A DNA stretch of 64,000 bases from an uncultured Eubacteriales bacterium (GTDB lineage: Bacteria; Bacillota; Clostridia; Oscillospirales; CAG-272): assembly GCA_934476315.1 (NCBI GenBank), contig CAKSNQ010000002.1:4943-68942 (forward strand). Reading direction: 5' to 3'. Below are positions 4,001 to 33,165 of this stretch, in pieces (position 1 is the first letter of the stretch; each line of letters begins with the position of its first letter). The translations under genes and the position numbers were made by a program. A model generated the notes under the pieces. The model was not told where the DNA came from and searched no databases. It saw nothing but the letters and a program-made list of their open reading frames with translations.

Positions 4001-4946
4001 CAATGGTCGTTACGACTTCCAGAGCCTGGCGGGTGCAGTCGATCTGATGGAGCCGGAGGGCTACGCGCTCGACGCCAACTCCGACGTCAGCATGCTTCAG
4101 ATTCCGTTCGCCAACGCTTACGCACGCTACACCATGCCGGACGCGCCTGTTGTCTGGAAGGAGTACGGCAAGAGCAGCTGGACCGGTTCAAACTTCACCG
4201 ATAACTCCTTGAGTCTGGAGAACACTGCAAACTACTACCGCAGAGTTCTGGAGTACGCTTATAAGAGCTACACCTCCGGCATGTTCTGCTGGTACTACGC
4301 CGGCGGCTTCCGTATCGGCGAAAACTCCGACTACGGCATCCTGAACCCGGATGGCTCCGATCGTCCCTGCACCACAGTACTTCGTCAGTACGCGCCGCTC
4401 TTCATTTCGCAGGGCGAGCGGCAGACGACCGGCGAAAAGCTGATTTCGATCGAGCGTGACGAAAAGAACCCACGCGGTATCTACGACATGTTCCTCAAGA
4501 TCAAGGATCAGCTCGCCAACCTGTTCAACACGGGCAAGACGTTCGACTTCATCAATAGCCAGCAGACCACCTTCGGCGAGAAGTTCTACGCTGAGGACGT
4601 GGTGGACATGGCAGTCGGCGGAACCAAGACCGACGGCGCTTACCCGCTGAAGTACGTCAACGGCATGGTCAAGGACTTCCAGACCTACGAAAAGGACGGC
4701 AAGACCTACGCACGCGTCACGGTGTGCAACACCGGTCACGCCGCTTGGGAAGAGGGTACCATCTCGCTGGTCTCGACTGCTTCAAGCAAGGCGAAGATTG
4801 CCAAGTACACCTTCACCGAGGATGTTGACTATCTTGAGAACGTCGTCATTGATGTAGAGATTTCCGGCACCGGCGCACTTGAATTGCGCTTCGCATTCCG
4901 CAACGGACTGGAATTCGGTTACAATTACAAAACGACCATCAAGTAA
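1044..4946 (+). CDS. large secreted lipoprotein with a central TIM-barrel glycoside-hydrolase-like region
   Basis: 1300-aa ORF. N-terminal signal peptide with lipobox LSAC. Central segment FFGVNYMPSYG...HDDLLHIKDMGMNAVSVFIH...YDICWE resembles clan GH-A hydrolases. GH family not assignable by eye. Confidence 0.6.
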   Translation: MMKRLLTLILVGVLICSSLFMLSACKDDPDPTPPGPSTDETIPLVENGEFQYRIVYSDFANNNVKNLAKALRTGLQAVTGTKVTIVTDWEDKDENADIKEILVGKTNRAASTEAMDGLSDKEYVIRLSGAKIVLAGGADETLALAVNSFLKNQVGYISDSEFTENKTLSIPKTLNILQKMEDPSNMVILIGNHDVTYVDSLRTALSANYSSVTVVDPHEGNFNAADVFDATKNTLIIIAGADTVPNTVRDAIPGYLANKGRILTLGGPAFSNTTYELDGNWYSKEDFLYTSLLRLGSSQRQTIFDTTKADTPSKPYISKDGDSAAPVIAFGNFDLDTASPGTTDSKLQMRFSTSYLRNWDYFTYNFTPTLKNGNTFGFWAKAGDNQTDGMFVELTDKAGSRWTCGVKLSTEWKYYTLTPTNFRWWRDSTATTLTAPDFSQLTKFSMGFALSGYSMGQGAHSICLSHVEVLEAPPVSTTNLTIDGLAPEYEMYPVTNAASFRTYDNQVFVTDRNYTMPEELVSRHPGRQGTGYGKLRANRFIPLVEIQDAKGLHSGYLAWMTLFSSTTNNNGSMEGSVIGGISAVSNDFYNASGIALVGEVVDAMMLPAYLTQGGTTEYTYIASDTESVSAGGAYVDLSRVGSTENVVMDIELYRNGESIKKMDSTVCKLIKQSNDIRQSFYNYDLSSGTPDHVVVTLKIDGRIVDRIEHDIVFWSPKAESDRHYIYKEDGYFKQDGKIINFFGVNYMPSYGVADTATIPNVGTTFEHYIHSAAYDPEVIHDDLLHIKDMGMNAVSVFIHAQGADSNNMLDLIRQCDELGIYVDLSIRSGNSDNRATGDFLYFTKENAEKLIVPQHFSEVDNIIAYDICWERAMGSYAASGDLGRYIYDAQWRQWILDQYGSVEHAEALWGCKAPRNSAGLVVGPDDNTFGNPTDSQAKMIAAYYRFLDDVIADDFNATFTYMRQFDNNHLYSFRMSMSGSPSVSPVNGRYDFQSLAGAVDLMEPEGYALDANSDVSMLQIPFANAYARYTMPDAPVVWKEYGKSSWTGSNFTDNSLSLENTANYYRRVLEYAYKSYTSGMFCWYYAGGFRIGENSDYGILNPDGSDRPCTTVLRQYAPLFISQGERQTTGEKLISIERDEKNPRGIYDMFLKIKDQLANLFNTGKTFDFINSQQTTFGEKFYAEDVVDMAVGGTKTDGAYPLKYVNGMVKDFQTYEKDGKTYARVTVCNTGHAAWEEGTISLVSTASSKAKIAKYTFTEDVDYLENVVIDVEISGTGALELRFAFRNGLEFGYNYKTTIK

Positions 4947-25955: not shown

Positions 25956-26040
25956 GCGAGAGTGGCGGAACAGGCAGACGCGCACGTTTGAGGGGCGTGT
26001 GGTTAACACCGTACGGGTTCAAGTCCCGTTTCTCGCACCA
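25956..26040 (+). tRNA. tRNA-Leu (anticodon GAG), class II with long variable arm, CCA encoded
   Basis: Hand fold: acceptor gcgagag/ttctcgc, D-arm gcg-gaacaggcaga-cgc, anticodon stem cacgt/gcgtg with loop ttGAGgg, variable arm tggttaacaccgta, T-arm cggg-ttcaagt-cccg, 3' acca. Confidence 0.85.
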
Positions 26041-26176
26041 ACGCAAAAAGCAAGGAAAAACACCGCATTTCAGGGTTTTTCCTTGCTTTTTCTATGTTTT
26101 TCGGCTCTTTTGATTGCACGCTGGCGCAAAAATTATTCCTTTGAAAAGGGATAAATTATCAGAAAAAATGCGTTTT
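26016..26176. repeat. attL (tRNA 3' end plus 136 bp downstream)
   Basis: 161 bp matching 46271-46431 with 3 substitutions (about 26078, 26141, 26143). Followed by ttcaatacgaaa x2 (26176-26200), candidate arm sites. Confidence 0.85.
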
Positions 26177-26200: not shown

Positions 26201-27272
26201 TCAATTTGAATCGCCGAACAGATTGCTGTAATATGTGTTGAGAATTTCGGTGAACCGTTCCTTGCTGTTCGCTTTGATATGTCCGTACACCTGGTCGATC
26301 ATGTGCTCTGTTTCGTGCCCTACATAGTCGGCAATGTAATTTTTCGGGATGTTCAAGGAAAGCATCGTCGAAACCGCATAATGCCGCAAATCGTGAAAAC
26401 GGATGTGCCGGAGTTCCGCCCGAGCCAACAACTTTGTGAATCCCGATGTGATCTGATTGGGCGTCAACTCACACACATTGTCGGACGGGTGCTTCCCCTC
26501 CGCTTTGGCTGTCAGGACATTCAGGACCGCAGGAAACGCCGAGATCGTCCGTTTGCTCGCCGTCGTCTTGGTGCCTTTCTTGACGTAACCATCTGTGCCG
26601 AGGACGATCGCGTCGTGAATGTGAATCTTTCCCTTTTTGAGGTCGATGTCTTTCCATTTCAAGCCGCAGATTTCCGATCGCCGCATGCCGCAACATGCCG
26701 CGAGATAAATGGGAAGCTCCAGCGGCGTACCCTCCGCGGCGCTCAACATGCGCTTCACATCGTCGTCGGACGGAATTTCAATGTCAGGCTTCACCTTTTG
26801 CGGCAACGTTGTCTTGACCTGAAATTCCGGACGGTAGACCGCAAGAACCGCCGTCAAAAAGCCGTGATAGTTGCGTACAGATTTCGGACTGTGGTTCAAG
26901 GCTTCTTTGTTGATGGCGATCTGAATGTCCCGCTGGGTGATGTTCTCCAACCGCATGTTGACCAAGGATTGCAGGTTGCGCCGCCGGATGTTCCGATACT
27001 CCCGCAGAGTGCTCGGAGAGAGTACCGAGCTTTTCATCGCGATATATTCATCCATACAGTCGCCGAGACGCTTTCCCCAGGTGCGATCTGCCCGGGATTG
27101 CTCTCGGTTTTTTTTGCATTTCCAGCGCCCAAAGGACAACTTTGTTATAGTCGGGGTCTGTGTAAGATTCCACTTTTCTCTTGCCATTTTCATCTTTTCC
27201 CACGTAAACTTGTATATTGTAGGACCCGGACGGAAGTTGCCGGATCACCGGAAGTTTTCTTTCGCGTGCCAT
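26201..27272 (-). pseudogene. int: tyrosine integrase, reading frame split by one extra A in an A8 run (27108-27115)
   Basis: N-terminal ORF MARERKLPVIRQLPSGSYNIQVYVGKDENGKRK (arm-binding type; GAGGAGG RBS, ATG 27272). C-terminal ORF has GMRRSEICGLKW...HDLRHYAVS...HMIDQVYGH (R-HxxR-Y). Removing one A gives a continuous 356-aa protein. Confidence 0.85.
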
Positions 27273-27328: not shown

Positions 27329-28189
27329 TTATTTTGCGGTAACGGTTCCGGAGCAGTCCGTAACATAAGCATTACCTTCGGATTCTTCTGTGATTACATA
27401 TCGCATGCCATTCATTTCAAACTGCTTAATGTTAAATGTTTCCGAATATGCGCCAGATTGAGGTAATTGGACGGTTTTATAGATATAAATCCATTCATGT
27501 TCACCTGTGATAATATTACGTGCAGAGAAAGCGTAGCATATTTTGACTGACACATCTTGATATATGTATCTGTCATCGGGAAAAATTTGAAGGGATATTT
27601 CACATCCATCTAACCACTGCTTTCTGCCATGTGAATCATATGACATTTCTCCCGCTTTCTGTATGTAATTGTATATACCATTATCATAGCTTTCTGTTGC
27701 AACCCAATAACCATCAGTTGCCATACGATAATACTTGCTATTATGATAGCTGGTATAGTCGACTATTTTATTGCCCGACAAAGTGACTTTCTGGTATTTT
27801 TCGATAAGTTTGTTGCGGTCCTTTGTTAATTGAGCAACATGTTCAGAAAGTGTTTTGTTTGCATTTTCCAATTTTTGAACATTTTGATTTAGCTCAGTTA
27901 CTTTTGAAGTAGCAACGTCAAAATCTTCCGTCTTTTTTTGGAGTCTTTCCTTGTAAGTGTTTACGTCATTGGTCAAAGTGTCATTTTTTTCTTCCAAGGT
28001 TTTGTTGATAGCTTGATACTCACTCTCCGTATTTATATGCTTTTGGATTGTCTCCTGATAATTGTCAATAGCCTCCGCATATGTGTTGTATTGTACAAAG
28101 AAATATGCGGATGTACCGCCGAGCCCGACGATGAGAACCGCAAGAACCACGAGAATAGGGACGATAACCTTAGATTTCATAGAAGTCAC
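27329..28189 (-). CDS. AT-rich membrane-anchored coiled-coil protein, unknown function (lysogeny-side moron)
   Basis: 286 aa: N-terminal TM (VIVPILVVLAVLIVGLGG), a coiled coil of about 110 aa, then a Y/W-rich globular C-terminal domain. Visibly AT-rich compared with all neighbours. Confidence 0.7.
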   Translation of the reverse strand: MTSMKSKVIVPILVVLAVLIVGLGGTSAYFFVQYNTYAEAIDNYQETIQKHINTESEYQAINKTLEEKNDTLTNDVNTYKERLQKKTEDFDVATSKVTELNQNVQKLENANKTLSEHVAQLTKDRNKLIEKYQKVTLSGNKIVDYTSYHNSKYYRMATDGYWVATESYDNGIYNYIQKAGEMSYDSHGRKQWLDGCEISLQIFPDDRYIYQDVSVKICYAFSARNIITGEHEWIYIYKTVQLPQSGAYSETFNIKQFEMNGMRYVITEESEGNAYVTDCSGTVTAK

Positions 28190-28217: not shown

Positions 28218-28835
28218 TCAGAATTTTCTCCGAACCTCAACAACTTTTCCGAAGATACGCACCGGAAGTTCCTGTACCTGCGCACTCGTGTAAATCATGG
28301 GACCGTAGTCCGGGTTGAGGGAGATCAGGCGAATACCGTCCGGCATAAACTGAATTTTTTTGCAGGTTGCTTCACTGCCGTTGACGATAACGATTGCGTA
28401 GTCCCCTGTCCTGCACGGGTTTCCGCACTCCACGATAACACGGTCGCCATTTCGGATATCCGGCTCCATACTGTCACCGTGAATTTTCAGGGCAATGTAT
28501 TCGGGCGCCGGGAATTGACGTTTGTCAATGTCCTCCCAGTCGTCCCATTCCTGAATCGCTTCAATCGGAATCCCCGCGGCAACATCGCCGACAACGGGGA
28601 TTCTTTTTGCGTACGACTCTGCCGAGGGTTTGCTTGGTAGCTCATCTGTTTTTCCAAGTAAATAATCCACACTGACGTCAAAATAATCGGCAATTTTTTG
28701 CAATTTTTTCCCTTGCGGAACAGAACCGTTTTTCCATTGCGTGGTGGATGATCTTCCTCCCCCTATTGCTTCAGCTACATTTGAGGGGGTGGTACCATGC
28801 TCTTGACATAAGCGTTTGAATGTTTCCCAAAACAT
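28218..28835 (-). CDS. CI/LexA-type repressor (XRE HTH + S24 peptidase)
   Basis: MFWETFKRLCQEHGTTPSNVAEAIG...QWKNG (HTH), VAAGIP (Ala-Gly cleavage site), GDSMEP (Ser), CKKI (Lys). GGAGGA RBS before ATG 28835. Confidence 0.9.
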   Translation of the reverse strand: MFWETFKRLCQEHGTTPSNVAEAIGGGRSSTTQWKNGSVPQGKKLQKIADYFDVSVDYLLGKTDELPSKPSAESYAKRIPVVGDVAAGIPIEAIQEWDDWEDIDKRQFPAPEYIALKIHGDSMEPDIRNGDRVIVECGNPCRTGDYAIVIVNGSEATCKKIQFMPDGIRLISLNPDYGPMIYTSAQVQELPVRIFGKVVEVRRKF

Positions 28836-28915
28836 TATATTCCTCCAAAATTCATAAATCGGAGCACTCTTGTTTGTTAAATGTGCATGAAAAAGAATTT
28901 TTTTCAAAAATCCTC

Positions 28916-28944
28916 TTGACATGTACGTAATTACGAATTATAAT
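28916..28944 (+). promoter_or_regulatory. early rightward promoter (PR-like)
   Basis: TTGACA (28916-28921), exact 17-nt spacer, TATAAT (28939-28944): full consensus. Confidence 0.8.
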
Positions 28945-30299: not shown

Positions 30300-30548
30300 A
30301 TGAGTGCGGATGTTGTGTTGGGCGAGAAGATCAGGGAGAAAGTGATTGAGTGTAGACGCAGCTGTGGCATGAAGCGGAGAGACGTGGTAGCGGCTCTCCA
30401 GCTGTACGGCTTTGAGCTGAGCTATCAGGCATACAAAGAAATTGAACTTGGAATCAGGAAAATCTCTGCACAGGAATTTCTACTGTTGGCGACTATCCTG
30501 CTGATAGACCCCACGGCAATCCTGCCGGAGCGGGCAATTGCAGGGTAA
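30300..30548 (+). CDS. XRE-family HTH protein
   Basis: 82 aa from MSADVVLGEKIRE (GGAAGGAGGG RBS); HTH_3-like ...YKEIELGIRKISAQEFLLLATIL. Confidence 0.7.
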   Translation: MSADVVLGEKIREKVIECRRSCGMKRRDVVAALQLYGFELSYQAYKEIELGIRKISAQEFLLLATILLIDPTAILPERAIAG

Positions 30549-30555
30549 GCCCCCC

Positions 30556-30734
30556 TCCGGGAAGCGTCCCGGAGAGCGTCCCGAGCCGCGTAGCGGCTCC
30601 AAAGTCGCTAAAGGTCGCGCGCGTACGCGCGCGTAGTATTACCTTTAGCGACTTTGTTAAGCGTTAAGAAGCCGAAATTTACCTTGCGTGCCAAGGGAAA
30701 TTTTCTTAACGTGCTTTGTTAAGACTTTGTTAAG
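30556..30734 (+). promoter_or_regulatory. rolling-circle origin: hairpins, stem-loop with TAGTATTAC, GTTAAG iterons
   Basis: Hairpins ctccggga/tcccggag (30556-30575) and gagccgc/gcggctc. 16-bp stem 30600-30615/30641-30656 enclosing (CG)4TA(CG)4 (30616-30633). TAGTATTAC at 30634-30642. GTTAAG at 30656, 30663, 30718 and 30729, plus inverted cttaac at 30705. Confidence 0.8.
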
Positions 30735-30766
30735 AAACCAAATTCGGGAACATCAGGCGGTGATTT

Positions 30767-31981
30767 ATGGCATACACAGCAGCGTCCCGTAGTTGGTTCG
30801 CGGTGTTCAACAACCCCGCAGATCACGGATATCCCGGCGAACCGAACGAGGTGTGCAACCGTCTCATGACAGAGTGGTGCATCACAGACAGCCGCGTGGG
30901 AGCGTGGGCATATTGCGTCAAGCATTACATGGGGTGCTTTCCGGTCTATGACGAGGAAAACGACCCGGAGCACAAAAGCCCTATCAGCTTCCGCCCGGCT
31001 GTTACAGAGGAAGAAAAAGCGCAGGTCCCGCCCGACCTTCACCATATTCACATGGTGCTGGAGGACGATAAACCCATGGGCTTTTCGGTGGTGCGTAAGA
31101 CTTACGCCATCGGGTCACATTTTGAACCGACCCGCGGCACCCGTAAAGACGCCGAGGACTACATATCCAAAACGGGAAAATATGACGAATCAAAGAACCG
31201 GGAGCTGGGACTCCCGTGGGAGGAGGTGTTGTTTGTCGCCCGCCGGGGCGAAATCAGCGGACGCCAGGGGCAACAGAACCAGCTGGAGCAAATCAAATCC
31301 TTGGTAGACTCCGGCATGACCCCGATGCAGATTTTACGCAAGGACGTGCGACTGTACCGCTTTGAATCGGAGATCAAAAAAATCTACTTTGACAAGCGCG
31401 TGCAGGAAACCCCGATGATGCGGGAGGTGCGGGTCTACTGGCATACCGGAGGATCCGGTTCGGGTAAATCCTTTTACCGGAATCACGTCAATGAGGTCTA
31501 CGGTGAAGAAAATGTGTTTTATCTTACCACCTACAACAAGGACCGCATGTGGGACGGCTACGTCGGACAACAGGCGCTTTGGATGGAGGACTTTAAGGGA
31601 GGCATCCCGTTCGGCGACCTCCTCCGGTACCTGGATGTGTATAAAGCGACCCTCCCCGCCCGGTATACCAACGGTGTCGCCGTGTGGAAGCAGGTGGACA
31701 TCACGTCGGTTTACACCCCACAGGGGGTATACCGCAAAATGGTGTCCTCCTCCGAGGAGGGGACCGATACCGTCAAACAGCTCTTACGCCGCATCACGCA
31801 GGTCGTATATCACTATGTCGAGATCGACAAGGACGGCAACAAGCAATATCTGTTCGAGTTCTTCCCCCCGGGGATGACGATGGAGCAGATGGCAAGCACC
31901 GTCAAAAACAAAAAGGCGGCACAGCTTCACGAGAGCGCCAGCTTCACCGAGCTTGGCGCGGAAGATGAGTTGCCGTTCTGA
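30767..31981 (+). CDS. rep: replication initiator: HUH (Y1) endonuclease fused to SF3 helicase (CRESS-DNA-virus/pCRESS-like Rep)
   Basis: Motif I WFAVFNNP, motif II HHIHMVLE, motif III DYISKTG, Walker A GGSGSGKS, Walker B LWMEDFKG, motif C VDITSV. Order and spacing match circovirus-type Rep. Confidence 0.85.
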   Translation: MAYTAASRSWFAVFNNPADHGYPGEPNEVCNRLMTEWCITDSRVGAWAYCVKHYMGCFPVYDEENDPEHKSPISFRPAVTEEEKAQVPPDLHHIHMVLEDDKPMGFSVVRKTYAIGSHFEPTRGTRKDAEDYISKTGKYDESKNRELGLPWEEVLFVARRGEISGRQGQQNQLEQIKSLVDSGMTPMQILRKDVRLYRFESEIKKIYFDKRVQETPMMREVRVYWHTGGSGSGKSFYRNHVNEVYGEENVFYLTTYNKDRMWDGYVGQQALWMEDFKGGIPFGDLLRYLDVYKATLPARYTNGVAVWKQVDITSVYTPQGVYRKMVSSSEEGTDTVKQLLRRITQVVYHYVEIDKDGNKQYLFEFFPPGMTMEQMASTVKNKKAAQLHESASFTELGAEDELPF

Positions 31982-31995
31982 TAGAGAAGAAAGGA

Positions 31996-33165
31996 ATGGG
32001 GATTATGGAATCAATTATCGAGAGAAACAAACGAATCGGTGCGGATGCAAAGCGTGCCGCATTTATGGTGAAGCAACAACAATCATATGAGTTCAAGAAA
32101 AAGTATGCTGCAATTCGCGCCCGAGAGTTTGTGCAAATGTGTGACGAACACGACAAAGAGTATTATGTTTCTGTTGGCGGTTTGGATAGCATTACACTGT
32201 TTTTGTTCTTGCACTCTATCGGAATTCGTTGTCCCGGCGTGTCCGCGTCATACCTTGAAGATCGCGGGAATCAGGCGGTACATAAGACGTTGGGGATTAT
32301 ATCTGTTAGCCCGATTAAACGTGAAAACGGAAAGCCTTGGACAAAATCAGCAGTCATTCAGGAATTCGGTTTTCCTGTTTTGTCAAAAGAAATCGCCGCA
32401 AAAATCGAACTGTTGCAGAATCCAACCGAAAACAATGCAACGGTGAGACATGCGATTATCACAGGAAAAACCGGAGCCTACGGCGGTAACCGCAAAAATT
32501 CAAGAATGAAGCTATCGCAAAAATGGCTTGAAAAGTTCGGCGGTTATGAAAACGAGAATGAAGGCGTGAACTATCAAAAGCCGAACTTCAAAGTTTCCGC
32601 AAAATGCTGTTATTACCTGAAAGAACGTCCATGTGAGCTTTGGGCAAAAGAGCATAACAGCGTTCCCTTCGTCGGTCTTATGGCTTCCGAGGGCGGACGA
32701 CGCGCAAGGGCTTTAATGGTGAACGGGTGTAATTATTGGACAGAGGGGACGCAGAGAAGCGCACCGTTTGCTATCTTCGGAAGGCAAGACATTCTCAGGC
32801 TGGCGCTTGAAATGGATGAATACTATCATGCACATTGGCGCGAATTCGGAGAAGCCGAAATGGATACCATTATTCCGGAAGCATACGGAGCAATAGAAAC
32901 GGACGAAAACGGAAATCTGTACACCACAAAGGCGCAAAGAACAGGTTGTTCCATGTGCGGCTTCGGGATTCACCTGGAAAAGCGTCCGAACCGTTTTGAC
33001 TACCTTTATCAAACAAACCCCAAAGAATGGGATTATCTTATGTTCCGGTGTTGTAAAGACGAGGAAGGAAACGCTTTCGGTTGGGCACGCGTCCTTGATT
33101 ATATTGGTGTTGGCTGGACACCAGAAACCAATCCATTATGTAAAAAAGTGTTTGTAAGATCGTGA
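31996..33165 (+). CDS. PAPS-reductase-family PP-loop ATPase (IbrA/DndC/SspD-like)
   Basis: 389 aa; YVSVGGLDS PP-loop-like motif, C-terminal RTGCSMCGFG cysteine pair. Start may be ATG 32005. Confidence 0.65.
   Translation: MGIMESIIERNKRIGADAKRAAFMVKQQQSYEFKKKYAAIRAREFVQMCDEHDKEYYVSVGGLDSITLFLFLHSIGIRCPGVSASYLEDRGNQAVHKTLGIISVSPIKRENGKPWTKSAVIQEFGFPVLSKEIAAKIELLQNPTENNATVRHAIITGKTGAYGGNRKNSRMKLSQKWLEKFGGYENENEGVNYQKPNFKVSAKCCYYLKERPCELWAKEHNSVPFVGLMASEGGRRARALMVNGCNYWTEGTQRSAPFAIFGRQDILRLALEMDEYYHAHWREFGEAEMDTIIPEAYGAIETDENGNLYTTKAQRTGCSMCGFGIHLEKRPNRFDYLYQTNPKEWDYLMFRCCKDEEGNAFGWARVLDYIGVGWTPETNPLCKKVFVRS

Follow-up and report, generated by a model that had tools for sequence, protein, structure and literature searches.

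A probable circovirus-type replication origin beside a CRESS-type rep gene in a 20.3-kb integrated element of Clostridia

Introduction

Rep proteins related to the replication initiators of CRESS-DNA viruses (those with circular, Rep-encoding genomes of single-stranded DNA) are known from bacteria, where the pCRESS Reps sit on tRNA-integrated elements with tyrosine integrases, and the elements of groups pCRESS1-3 usually carry FtsK-like ATPases (Kazlauskas et al. 2019). One such Rep is encoded in the DNA analysed here, 64 kb of contig CAKSNQ010000002.1 from an uncultured Eubacteriales bacterium; this full stretch is called the window, and all feature coordinates are window positions. Upstream of its rep gene, the nonanucleotide TAGTATTAC lies in a stem-loop followed by short repeats. 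Comparison with related sequences indicates that positions 30600-30734 probably serve as double-strand (leading-strand) origin for a rolling-circle replicon that is driven by Rep and carried on a 20.3-kb temperate element at a tRNA-Leu gene.

The cognate site of faba bean necrotic yellows virus (FBNYV) is TAGTATT*AC, the Rep of porcine circovirus 2 (PCV2) has been crystallised on TAGTATTACC, and viral origins typically combine a stem of 9-11 bp with a loop of 10-13 nt (PMC7826260). The PCV2 origin consists of GAAGTGCGCTG-taagtattac-CAGCGCACTTC, followed by GGCAGCGGCAG (PMC8134455).

In streptococci, the PHA00330-type proteins of IMEs (integrative and mobilizable elements) are regarded as putative non-canonical relaxases with a possible second role in maintaining the element after excision, and the papers that describe them give no nic site (PMC5357655, PMC5704250). 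The text and supplements of Kazlauskas et al. 2019 contain no nonanucleotide, stem-loop or origin beyond a quoted Pfam description, and neither a structural review of pCRESS Reps nor the Replitron paper describes a pCRESS origin. The Rep family and its integrated lifestyle are already known; for this origin, no description was found in the searchable literature.

Anatomy of the probable origin

A preliminary description of this DNA, made from the sequence alone, had placed TAGTATTAC on the rep-sense strand just upstream of rep and identified it with the site of circovirus and nanovirus Reps. Both statements hold (Table 1): the nonamer occurs once in the 64 kb, on the + strand and with 125 nt between it and the downstream rep ATG, it is absent from all of 100 shuffles that preserve dinucleotides, and the sequence agrees with the FBNYV and PCV2 sites cited above. 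By analogy with the FBNYV site and the PCV2 Rep-DNA structure (PMC7826260), Rep is predicted to nick between T30640 and A30641 (TAGTATT/AC).

The 16-bp stem, the placement of the nonamer towards the 3' side of its loop and the (CG)4TA(CG)4 palindrome inside that loop are likewise present as had been described, but the nonamer does not lie wholly in the loop. In the predicted fold its AC (30641-30642) is already paired, at the very start of the 3' arm, and TAGTATT is, given the nested palindrome, its sole single-stranded part; because AC opens the 3' arm, the predicted nick falls at a junction of single- and double-stranded DNA. Folded as single-stranded DNA (ssDNA), positions 30549-30766 reach -62 kcal/mol against -32.9 +/- 3.2 in shuffles (z = -9.1), and the opposite strand gives z = -9.6. 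Two further perfect hairpins, also foreseen, precede the stem, with arms at 30555-62 / 30567-74 (8 bp) and 30583-89 / 30593-99 (7 bp).

The hexamer GTTAAG is not over-represented in the window overall (nine copies against about 15 expected by chance), and five of the nine are packed into 79 bp, at 30656, 30663, 30705 (- strand), 30718 and 30729. The 12-mer GACTTTGTTAAG starts at 30650 and 30723, and an 83% copy at 30712 gives spacings of 62 and 11 nt; in all, three copies of CTTTGTTAAG and five of GTTAAG adjoin the stem as putative Rep-binding repeats. Their number, the single inversion and the 11-nt spacing had been reported correctly, but the wording that they flank the stem needs correction: they do not stand on both sides, all five lying 3' of it, between stem and rep. 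The inverted iteron (30705-30710, - strand) is held in the 3' arm of a spacer hairpin, and the distal iterons (30712-30734) reproduce the stretch where the 3' arm passes into the first iteron.

GC and AT skew track gene orientation and do not mark the origin, and Rfam returned only sub-threshold hairpin lookalikes at the stem-loop, with no family at gathering score anywhere in the element. As candidates for a second nick site that would define a sub-genomic circle, the one-mismatch sites at 27511 and 32187 were considered and rejected, both lacking a stem.

Conservation of the site in related elements

The Rep family yielded 320 matches. Origins were tallied in 41 distinct elements: the window, 30 loci drawn from collections of genomes and of viral contigs (Oscillospiraceae, Lachnospiraceae, Ruminococcus, other Clostridia and three IMG/VR contigs) and, added to these, four closer relatives, two phage records and four streptococcal loci. 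The exact nonamer is present in 29 of the 41 (the window and 28 others). Eight carry variants with one to three mismatches (CAGTATTAC, TAGTGTTAC, TAGTCTTAC, CAGTGTTAC, TAGCATTGC, TAGGATTCC, CAATATTAC and TAGGGTAAC), and all 37 sites, exact or variant, lie in a stem-loop on the rep-sense strand. The preliminary description had proposed a comparison of homologous elements as a check on the nonanucleotide and its stem-loop, and the outcome is in its favour.

This conservation extends across Reps down to about 30% identity. The 463 kb made up of the window and the first 30 loci contain exactly 20 exact copies of TAGTATTAC, both strands counted, and every one of them sits in a perfect rep-strand stem of at least 8 bp; at random anchor positions in the same sequences, a stem of at least 8 bp occurs in only 1.2% of cases. 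Since the stems were picked by complementarity, their being 100% paired holds by construction, and the informative results are the random-anchor control and the diversity of pair types. Among 27 loci there are 22 distinct inner 8-bp stems. Covariation was scored for 21 origins that were aligned free of gaps, their loops cut to 10 nt since MAFFT had put gaps in the 5' arm. Seven of the eight stem pairs show changes on both sides, and 67 cells are doubly changed where shuffles have 19 +/- 4. The covariation score reaches 1.03, compared with 0.23 for shuffles, and none of 500 shuffles attains it. The columns of the nonamer are invariant or nearly so in the same alignment.

The position of the site relative to rep varies among lineages. 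Members of the window's clade, streptococcal elements and phages have it 108-170 nt upstream of the gene, another clade has it directly after the rep stop codon, and in a few loci it is 1-5 kb away; its strand is constantly that of rep, whatever its position.

That the stem-loop and repeats are a mere terminator or operator, or the nonamer a chance occurrence, with no nicking involved, is very improbable in the light of these data. A nonamer that is absent from shuffles is kept beside Reps only about 30% identical, in stems with compensatory substitutions, and it holds to one strand while it shifts from upstream of rep to just downstream of it or kilobases off. The location between two genes would suit such a reading, and a weak terminator-like site is present at 30682-30696, but no T-run follows the main stem. 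An operator would explain why the iterons stand where a rep promoter or operator would be expected, and autoregulation of Rep via iterons is known in geminiviruses.

The layout of the iterons is retained as well. Nearly every locus has a tandem pair of hexamers or heptamers directly at the 3' arm (such as GTTACAcGTTACAAA and GTCACAaGTCACAAA), and beyond a spacer of about 40-60 nt, often a hairpin itself, one inverted iteron is followed by two or three direct copies. The sequence of the iteron is specific to the lineage: GTTACA is the commonest, GTCACA, GATACA, GACACA, GTGACA, GTAACA and GTAAGT also occur, the streptococcal elements have ATGACA/GTGACA and AAGACA, and the window has GTTAAG. An arrangement that is kept while its sequence changes by lineage argues for the Rep-iteron layout that had been proposed for this site. 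In the distal copies, the final bases of the 3' arm recur along with the hexamer (ACTTCGTTACA in relatives, GACTTTGTTAAG in the window), which suggests that the unit recognised by Rep spans the junction of arm and iteron.

Most relatives resemble the viruses in these dimensions, with stems of 8-16 bp and loops of 9-13 nt. Nested GC-rich palindromes like that of the window are also found in L002, L025, L039, L041 and L043 (locus numbers of the collected elements), all in the window's Rep clade, and in all nested cases inspected, namely the window, L039 and L041, the outer stem runs into the AC of the nonamer. Streptococcal L047 has the same geometry with no palindrome insert, its 7-nt loop being TAGTATT and its AC paired. 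A hairpin of at least 6 bp within the 30 nt upstream accompanies 7 of 32 origins, compared with 4% of random windows, and is thus enriched but not universal; a GC-rich upstream hairpin, in many cases directly adjoining the origin stem, is found in L002, L011, L020, L021, L024, L025 and L038, where the structure is kept and the sequence is not.

A different stem-loop was observed about 70-80 nt upstream of rep in L005 (~1610-1650) and L006 (~4455-4495), both of which have no nonamer. The stems differ (CCGCTCCGGC/GCCGGAGCGG vs TTCGCCCCGAC/GTCGGGGCGAA) and the 16-nt loop is nearly alike (TGGTAGCCTTTAGGCT / TGGCTGCCTTTAGGCT); the structure could be an origin of another type or a hairpin with a regulatory role.

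The Rep protein

The neighbouring open reading frame (ORF) had been taken as rep, and sequence motifs, profile comparison and structural modelling all identify its product as a CRESS-type Rep. Its motifs run in the order I (FAVFNNP), II (HHIHMVL), III (YISK, with Y132), Walker A (GGSGSGKS), Walker B (LWMEDF) and C (ITS), and alignments of 25 and of 82 homologues show them to be invariant or almost so. Pfam recognises the superfamily 3 (SF3) helicase alone (RNA_helicase). The best solved relative by sequence is PCV2 Rep (single sequence, E = 6e-10; family profile, E = 1e-17); the two align from motif III through the helicase, with Y132 on the Tyr of the PCV2 motif III EYCSK and GSHFEPTRG on RCHIEKAKG. 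The latter is the "ssDNA bridging motif" of PCV2, which contacts the nonamer ends in the Rep-DNA structure (PMC7826260).

An AlphaFold2 model built on 82 sequences has a mean pLDDT (predicted local distance difference test) of 94.4. Its best match in the PDB is 9pqq, a redondovirus (Vientovirus) Rep (E = 8e-12 over 361 columns), and 8xms, 7lar and 8h56 match as well; besides the redondovirus protein, the best matches comprise the ATPase domain of PCV2 Rep, the full-length PCV2 protein and PCV2 Rep'. Among the predicted viral structures of BFVD, all named matches are Reps of CRESS-DNA viruses, aligned over nearly their whole length with E = 1e-17 to 1e-21. In the window's Rep clade, the nuclease domain carries an insertion of about 35 aa between motifs I and II (30923-31036, residues ~53-90), which the more remote members of the family lack and which the model renders, at high confidence, as additional strands plus a short helix.

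By pairwise sequence comparison, the protein belongs to pCRESS1: it is 37% identical to CUO23215.1 of this group over the full length (E = 5e-78), and pCRESS2 SCH60086.1 matches in the helicase half alone (29%, E = 1e-18). The sole plasmid relative is the distant Rep (25% identity) of the 4.5-kb Bifidobacterium plasmid NC_003527, presumably p4M. The phage collection contains no relatives other than recently deposited circular inovirus genomes from rodent faeces ("bajarodino viruses") and a single small record that is CRESS-like.

The integrated element

Integration into a bacterial chromosome, the last of the earlier claims, is borne out by near-identical attachment (att) repeats at tRNA-Leu, which bracket 20.3 kb of lower-GC DNA and adjoin the gene of a tyrosine integrase. 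The element looks intact, given these repeats and the recurrence of an identical Rep with the same gene order on seven metagenome contigs. The CI/LexA-like S24 repressor implies SOS-inducible control; the same gene is found in relatives L039 and L041.

The + strand carries an array of small helix-turn-helix (HTH) or uncharacterised ORFs, the origin, rep, a gene resembling phosphoadenosine phosphosulfate (PAPS) reductase, further small ORFs and five larger secreted or membrane proteins; nearly all genes are co-oriented with the predicted nicked strand. The position of the 82-aa ORF that ends just before the origin is filled in L041 and L043 by ORFs of 83-89 aa with HTH_3 or HTH_31. No homologue of the PAPS-reductase-like gene was found among L001-L030 (tblastn, E = 1e-5).

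Table 1. Coordinates of the origin, of rep and of other features of the element, in window positions unless an accession is given
Feature	Position	Strand	Details and basis
Nonanucleotide TAGTATTAC	30634..30642	+	single copy in window
Main origin stem-loop	30600..30656	+	perfect 16-bp arms 30600-30615 / 30641-30656, 25-nt loop; inverted-repeat search and folds
Nested palindrome (CG)4TA(CG)4	30616..30633	.	first 18 nt of main loop; inverted-repeat search and fold
Proximal iterons	30650..30668	+	GACTTTGTTAAG overlapping the end of the 3' arm, then tandem second GTTAAG (30663-30668)
Spacer hairpin	30662..30711	.	CGTTAAGAA / TTCTTAACG around AAATTTACCTTG / CAAGGGAAATTT; inverted-repeat search and fold
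Distal iterons TGCTTTGTTAAG and GACTTTGTTAAG	30712..30734	+	11 nt apart; direct-repeat search
Two small GC-rich perfect hairpins	30555..30574 and 30583..30599	.	second abuts main 5' arm
rep, 404 aa, HUH endonuclease and SF3 helicase	30767..31981	+	motifs, profile, AlphaFold2 model
attL, direct repeat of ~161 bp	26016..26176	.	includes 3' end of tRNA-Leu(GAG) (25956-26040)
attR, second repeat copy	46271..46431	.	constant offset of 20,255 nt, two short interruptions
Tyrosine integrase	26201..27193	-	Pfam Phage_integrase, E = 1e-19; adjoins attL
CI/LexA-like repressor, HTH_3 and Peptidase_S24	28218..28922	-	Pfam Peptidase_S24, E = 1e-26
Small ORF, 82 aa, stops just before origin	30300..30548	+	gene called in L031-L035; no Pfam domain
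PAPS-reductase-like gene directly after rep	31996..33165		phrog_424, E = 5e-22; no Pfam match
Conserved three-gene module	40291..44911	+	in relatives: L039 9574-14099; L041 15918-20255
Secreted protein, ~650 aa	40291..42246	+	signal peptide and C-terminal transmembrane (TM) anchor
Tiny TM ORF, 33 aa	42262..42363	+	below the 50-aa cut-off of the ORF list
Multi-TM P-loop ATPase	42386..44911	+	five N-terminal TM segments, then Walker A GTMGKGKT
Non-coding right end, 1.36 kb	44912..46270	.	no convincing ORF; strongly C-rich on + strand
TAGTATTAC in inoviruses	PQ006121 768-776; PQ006124 1851-1859		

The non-coding right end contains a 252-nt direct repeat (45091-45342 / 45364-45615, 91%), and a 26-nt palindrome, CAAATTCGCAAGCGCTTGCGAATTTG, brackets the repeat region at 44913 and 46081. 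Rfam has no match between 44912 and 46270. This segment might be a lagging-strand origin, or a regulatory or packaging region.

An ORF of 524 aa (38706-40280) combines a TM or signal segment at the N-terminus with a Gly/Thr-rich linker (GGTTTGGTTTGG...) and numerous repeats rich in Cys (CxxC...CxxC). Its product resembles a secreted protein built of repeats, metal-binding or disulphide-rich, and has no family match in Pfam or NCBIfam; the other large ORFs of the element gave nothing in PHROGs, Pfam or NCBIfam.

A tandem or circular form was observed for a relative. The 23.4-kb metagenome contig L042 shares its Rep with the copy integrated in L041; a direct repeat of 6,872 nt in it is perfect and has a period of 13,286 nt, and the form has no recombinase or repressor genes. 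Its junction, located against L041 7259 and 20554, joins the centre of the right-end palindromic serine-recombinase att core to a point inside a 101-aa ORF. An origin of this junction in Rep activity was considered and ruled out, the junction lying in the att core and not at the nonamer. Among the 12 related contigs shorter than 10 kb in L001-L030, none has a terminal overlap indicative of circularity.

Proposed mechanism

The rolling-circle reading draws on the mechanism of CRESS Reps (PMC7826260, PMC8780604) together with the comparative evidence. From the features established directly, namely the anatomy of the site, the family and fold of Rep, the conserved nonamer, the covarying stem, the iteron layout and the integration of the element, we infer the following course of induction, excision, cleavage and strand release. 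DNA damage would inactivate the S24 (LexA/CI-like) repressor, whereupon the + strand operon including rep would be expressed and the integrase would excise the element as a circle. Rep would bind the GTTAAG iterons, two in tandem at the 3' arm, one inverted and two distal, and the 16-bp inverted repeat would be extruded, a step in which the nested alternating-CG hairpin may assist on supercoiled DNA. Tyr132 of the HUH domain would then cut TAGTATT/AC and remain linked to the 5' end. A host polymerase would extend the 3'-OH as the SF3 helicase unwinds the duplex and the + strand is displaced; after one round, Rep would cut the regenerated site and ligate, and a circular + strand would be released.

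Several observations weigh against an origin of this kind. The stem of the window (16 bp), its loop (25 nt), the nested CG hairpin and the paired AC all depart from viral origins, the stem and loop exceeding the viral ranges because a GC-rich palindrome is nested in the loop. Nonamers have diverged in the eight elements listed above, and no site was found in four of the 41 (L005-L008); moreover, the counts are not independent events, because many loci are interrelated. The Asn of helicase motif C is replaced (ITSV in the window Rep vs ITSN in PCV2); this residue, conserved in all CRESS viruses, is reported to be absent from pCRESS1 too (Kazlauskas et al. 2019, supplementary note). A simple scan found no sigma-70 consensus promoter, and neither a single-stranded DNA-binding protein (SSB) gene nor a recognisable single-strand origin was found.

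The membrane-protein module and possible fates of the displaced strand

For the displaced strand, three uses are possible: maintenance of the excised form, which is the minimal reading, conjugative mobilisation and export in a virion. Downstream of the origin lies a conserved three-gene module. Across the window's clade, its tiny TM protein has 33-39 aa (...LGYVVYTF.VI) and its ATPase 736-841 aa. The module has no match in Pfam, PHROG, NCBIfam or the PDB and none to Zot. Seven homologues of the membrane ATPase were found, none of them annotated; Pfam scans of all members gave generic AAA hints alone, the profile finds nothing below E = 1 in the PDB, and the AlphaFold2 model is poor (pLDDT 41.9).

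If the site were mainly an origin of transfer (oriT), Rep would act as a relaxase nicking TAGTATT/AC, and the strand would be exported to another cell via a helper conjugation system, a route that has been proposed for streptococcal IMEs with homologous PHA00330-type proteins. This is a possible reading, clearly less probable than a replication origin, with which it overlaps, as one nick could serve both replication and transfer. The streptococcal Rep relatives, here assumed to be the "PHA00330" proteins of streptococcal IMEs, share the stem-loop in all four elements, and in three of the four an FtsK/DUF87-type ATPase gene lies directly upstream of, or next to, the origin. The Rep family is treated as putative non-canonical relaxases, a role that is proposed only in the papers concerned (PMC5357655, PMC5704250), and pCRESS1-3 elements usually have FtsK-like ATPases, as noted above. 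The window's own P-loop ATPase, membrane-anchored through N-terminal TM segments, has the topology of a coupling protein, but no similarity to FtsK, TcpA or VirD4 was detected in Pfam, NCBIfam or PDB profile searches. Of the parts of an IME with an RCR-type relaxase (integrase, Rep-related relaxase and usually the coupling protein TcpA), integrase and Rep are present and TcpA was not detected in the window; no conjugation genes were recognised in the element, and inoviruses with the same origin use it for replication.

The inoviruses bring in another alternative, in which the origin feeds virion production. The element would be a temperate phage of the ssDNA type, either resembling inoviruses or with a novel morphotype, that packages or extrudes the displaced + strand and is assembled by the three-gene module. 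Complete inovirus genomes with a homologous Rep and the same origin, the co-orientation of nearly all genes with the nicked strand, and the CI-like S24 repressor and lysogeny module of the window are consistent with such a phage. Among the relatives, Zot is encoded in L036 and L037, and L004 and L029 have ORFs with weak likeness to Zot (tblastn E = 2e-4). The order of the module also recalls gIII-gVI-gI of filamentous phages. Nevertheless, virion production by the window's element is unlikely. A possible identity of the membrane ATPase with Zot was rejected, hhalign against inovirus Zot giving 4% probability, and the best tblastn similarity to Zot anywhere in the window has only E > 0.6; the topology of the ATPase, with TM segments at the N-terminus, is opposite to that of pI. 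No candidate for a major coat protein was found, the sole small TM ORF being that of 33 aa, and no capsid-like protein was matched in the window. PHROGs has no match for the module, IMG/VR contains no relative of the ATPase, and 20 kb is large for an inovirus.

A broader proposal can be made only speculatively, being no more probable than virion production itself: the window's element, together with L001, L003, L039 and L041, could represent an unrecognised temperate ssDNA virus or virus-like exporter of Clostridia, SOS-inducible, with a CRESS-type Rep and a circovirus-type origin, and released by the three-gene membrane module. If that were true, a lineage of bacterial elements would connect inoviruses with pCRESS 'plasmids' and eukaryotic CRESS-DNA viruses, and Rep and the TAGTATTAC origin would be shown to have been inherited as one module.

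Significance

The proposal that CRESS viruses arose from bacterial plasmids rests on comparisons of Reps, and the cis-acting half of the replicon is now seen to be shared too. Nonamer, stem-loop and iteron placement are common to the Clostridia elements, streptococcal IMEs and filamentous phages, and many loci have the PCV2 stem base, so that co-inheritance of Rep and origin becomes directly testable. For the widespread PHA00330-type IME "relaxases", for which no published nic site was found, the nonamer provides a candidate nick site, whether as oriT, replication origin or both, and a widespread class of mobile elements in Firmicutes thereby gains a specific site open to testing. In addition, TAGTATTAC in a stem, followed by tandem hexamers, is a signature by which such replicons can be found and oriented, and a 20-kb temperate element with an unannotated putative export module has been flagged.

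Comparison with known systems

Compared with pCRESS1 elements, the window's element is alike in its tRNA-gene integration, tyrosine integrase and flanking direct repeats. It differs in having no recognisable FtsK/TcpA or SSB (FtsK and SSB gave no match in the window by Pfam, NCBIfam or PHROGs) and in carrying a CI-like S24 repressor and the unannotated membrane module, whose P-loop ATPase could not be classified. It is also larger: the rows of the pCRESS table compared here list elements of about 8-12 kb with att sites of 16-45 bp, as against 20 kb and an unusually long att of 161 bp. The streptococcal IMEs (Rel_PHA00330, Coluzzi et al. 2017) are alike in the origin, the same stem-loop being present in all four examined.

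The inoviruses PQ006121 (L036) and PQ006124 (L037) encode Reps about 29-31% identical to that of the window from motif II through the helicase. Their TAGTATTAC stem-loop lies between zot and rep, 136-166 nt upstream of rep and on the rep strand, with repeats following. Unlike the window, which has no detectable Zot or coat genes, they are complete circular phage genomes of 5.7-10 kb with Zot, and inoviruses replicate by way of ssDNA.

At the double-strand origins of the pMV158/pE194 plasmids, an HUH initiator nicks the loop of an extruded hairpin beside direct-repeat binding sites. The same logic, a nick in a hairpin loop beside direct-repeat sites, applies to the present locus; the plasmids differ in their nick sequence, the pMV158-type Reps have no fused SF3 helicase, and a small plasmid stands in place of an integrated element.

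The closest likeness in the origin itself is to Circoviridae and Nanoviridae, although these are capsid-encoding viruses of 1-2 kb and the window holds a 20-kb integrated bacterial element with integrase and repressor. Being chromosomal and 20.3 kb long, the element falls outside Cressdnaviricota as defined by a small circular ssDNA genome, a capsid gene and a eukaryotic host. Viral Reps have HUQ in motif II where the window has HUH, and the window's Rep further differs by a motif C without Asn and by the 35-aa insertion in the nuclease domain; the viral iteron set is smaller, that of the window being extended to two proximal, one inverted and two distal copies. Domain order and fold of the window Rep are nonetheless the same as in circovirus Rep, and circo- and nanoviruses alike carry a NANTATTAC-type nonamer in the loop of a stem that closely precedes rep, on the strand of that gene. 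As in PCV2, tandem hexamer iterons abut the 3' arm, and the RAAGT...ACTTY stem base of PCV2 is common to many of the bacterial loci, a likeness illustrated by L004, whose origin reads GAAGTGGCGG-tatagtattac-CCGCCACTTC-tgttacatgttaca.

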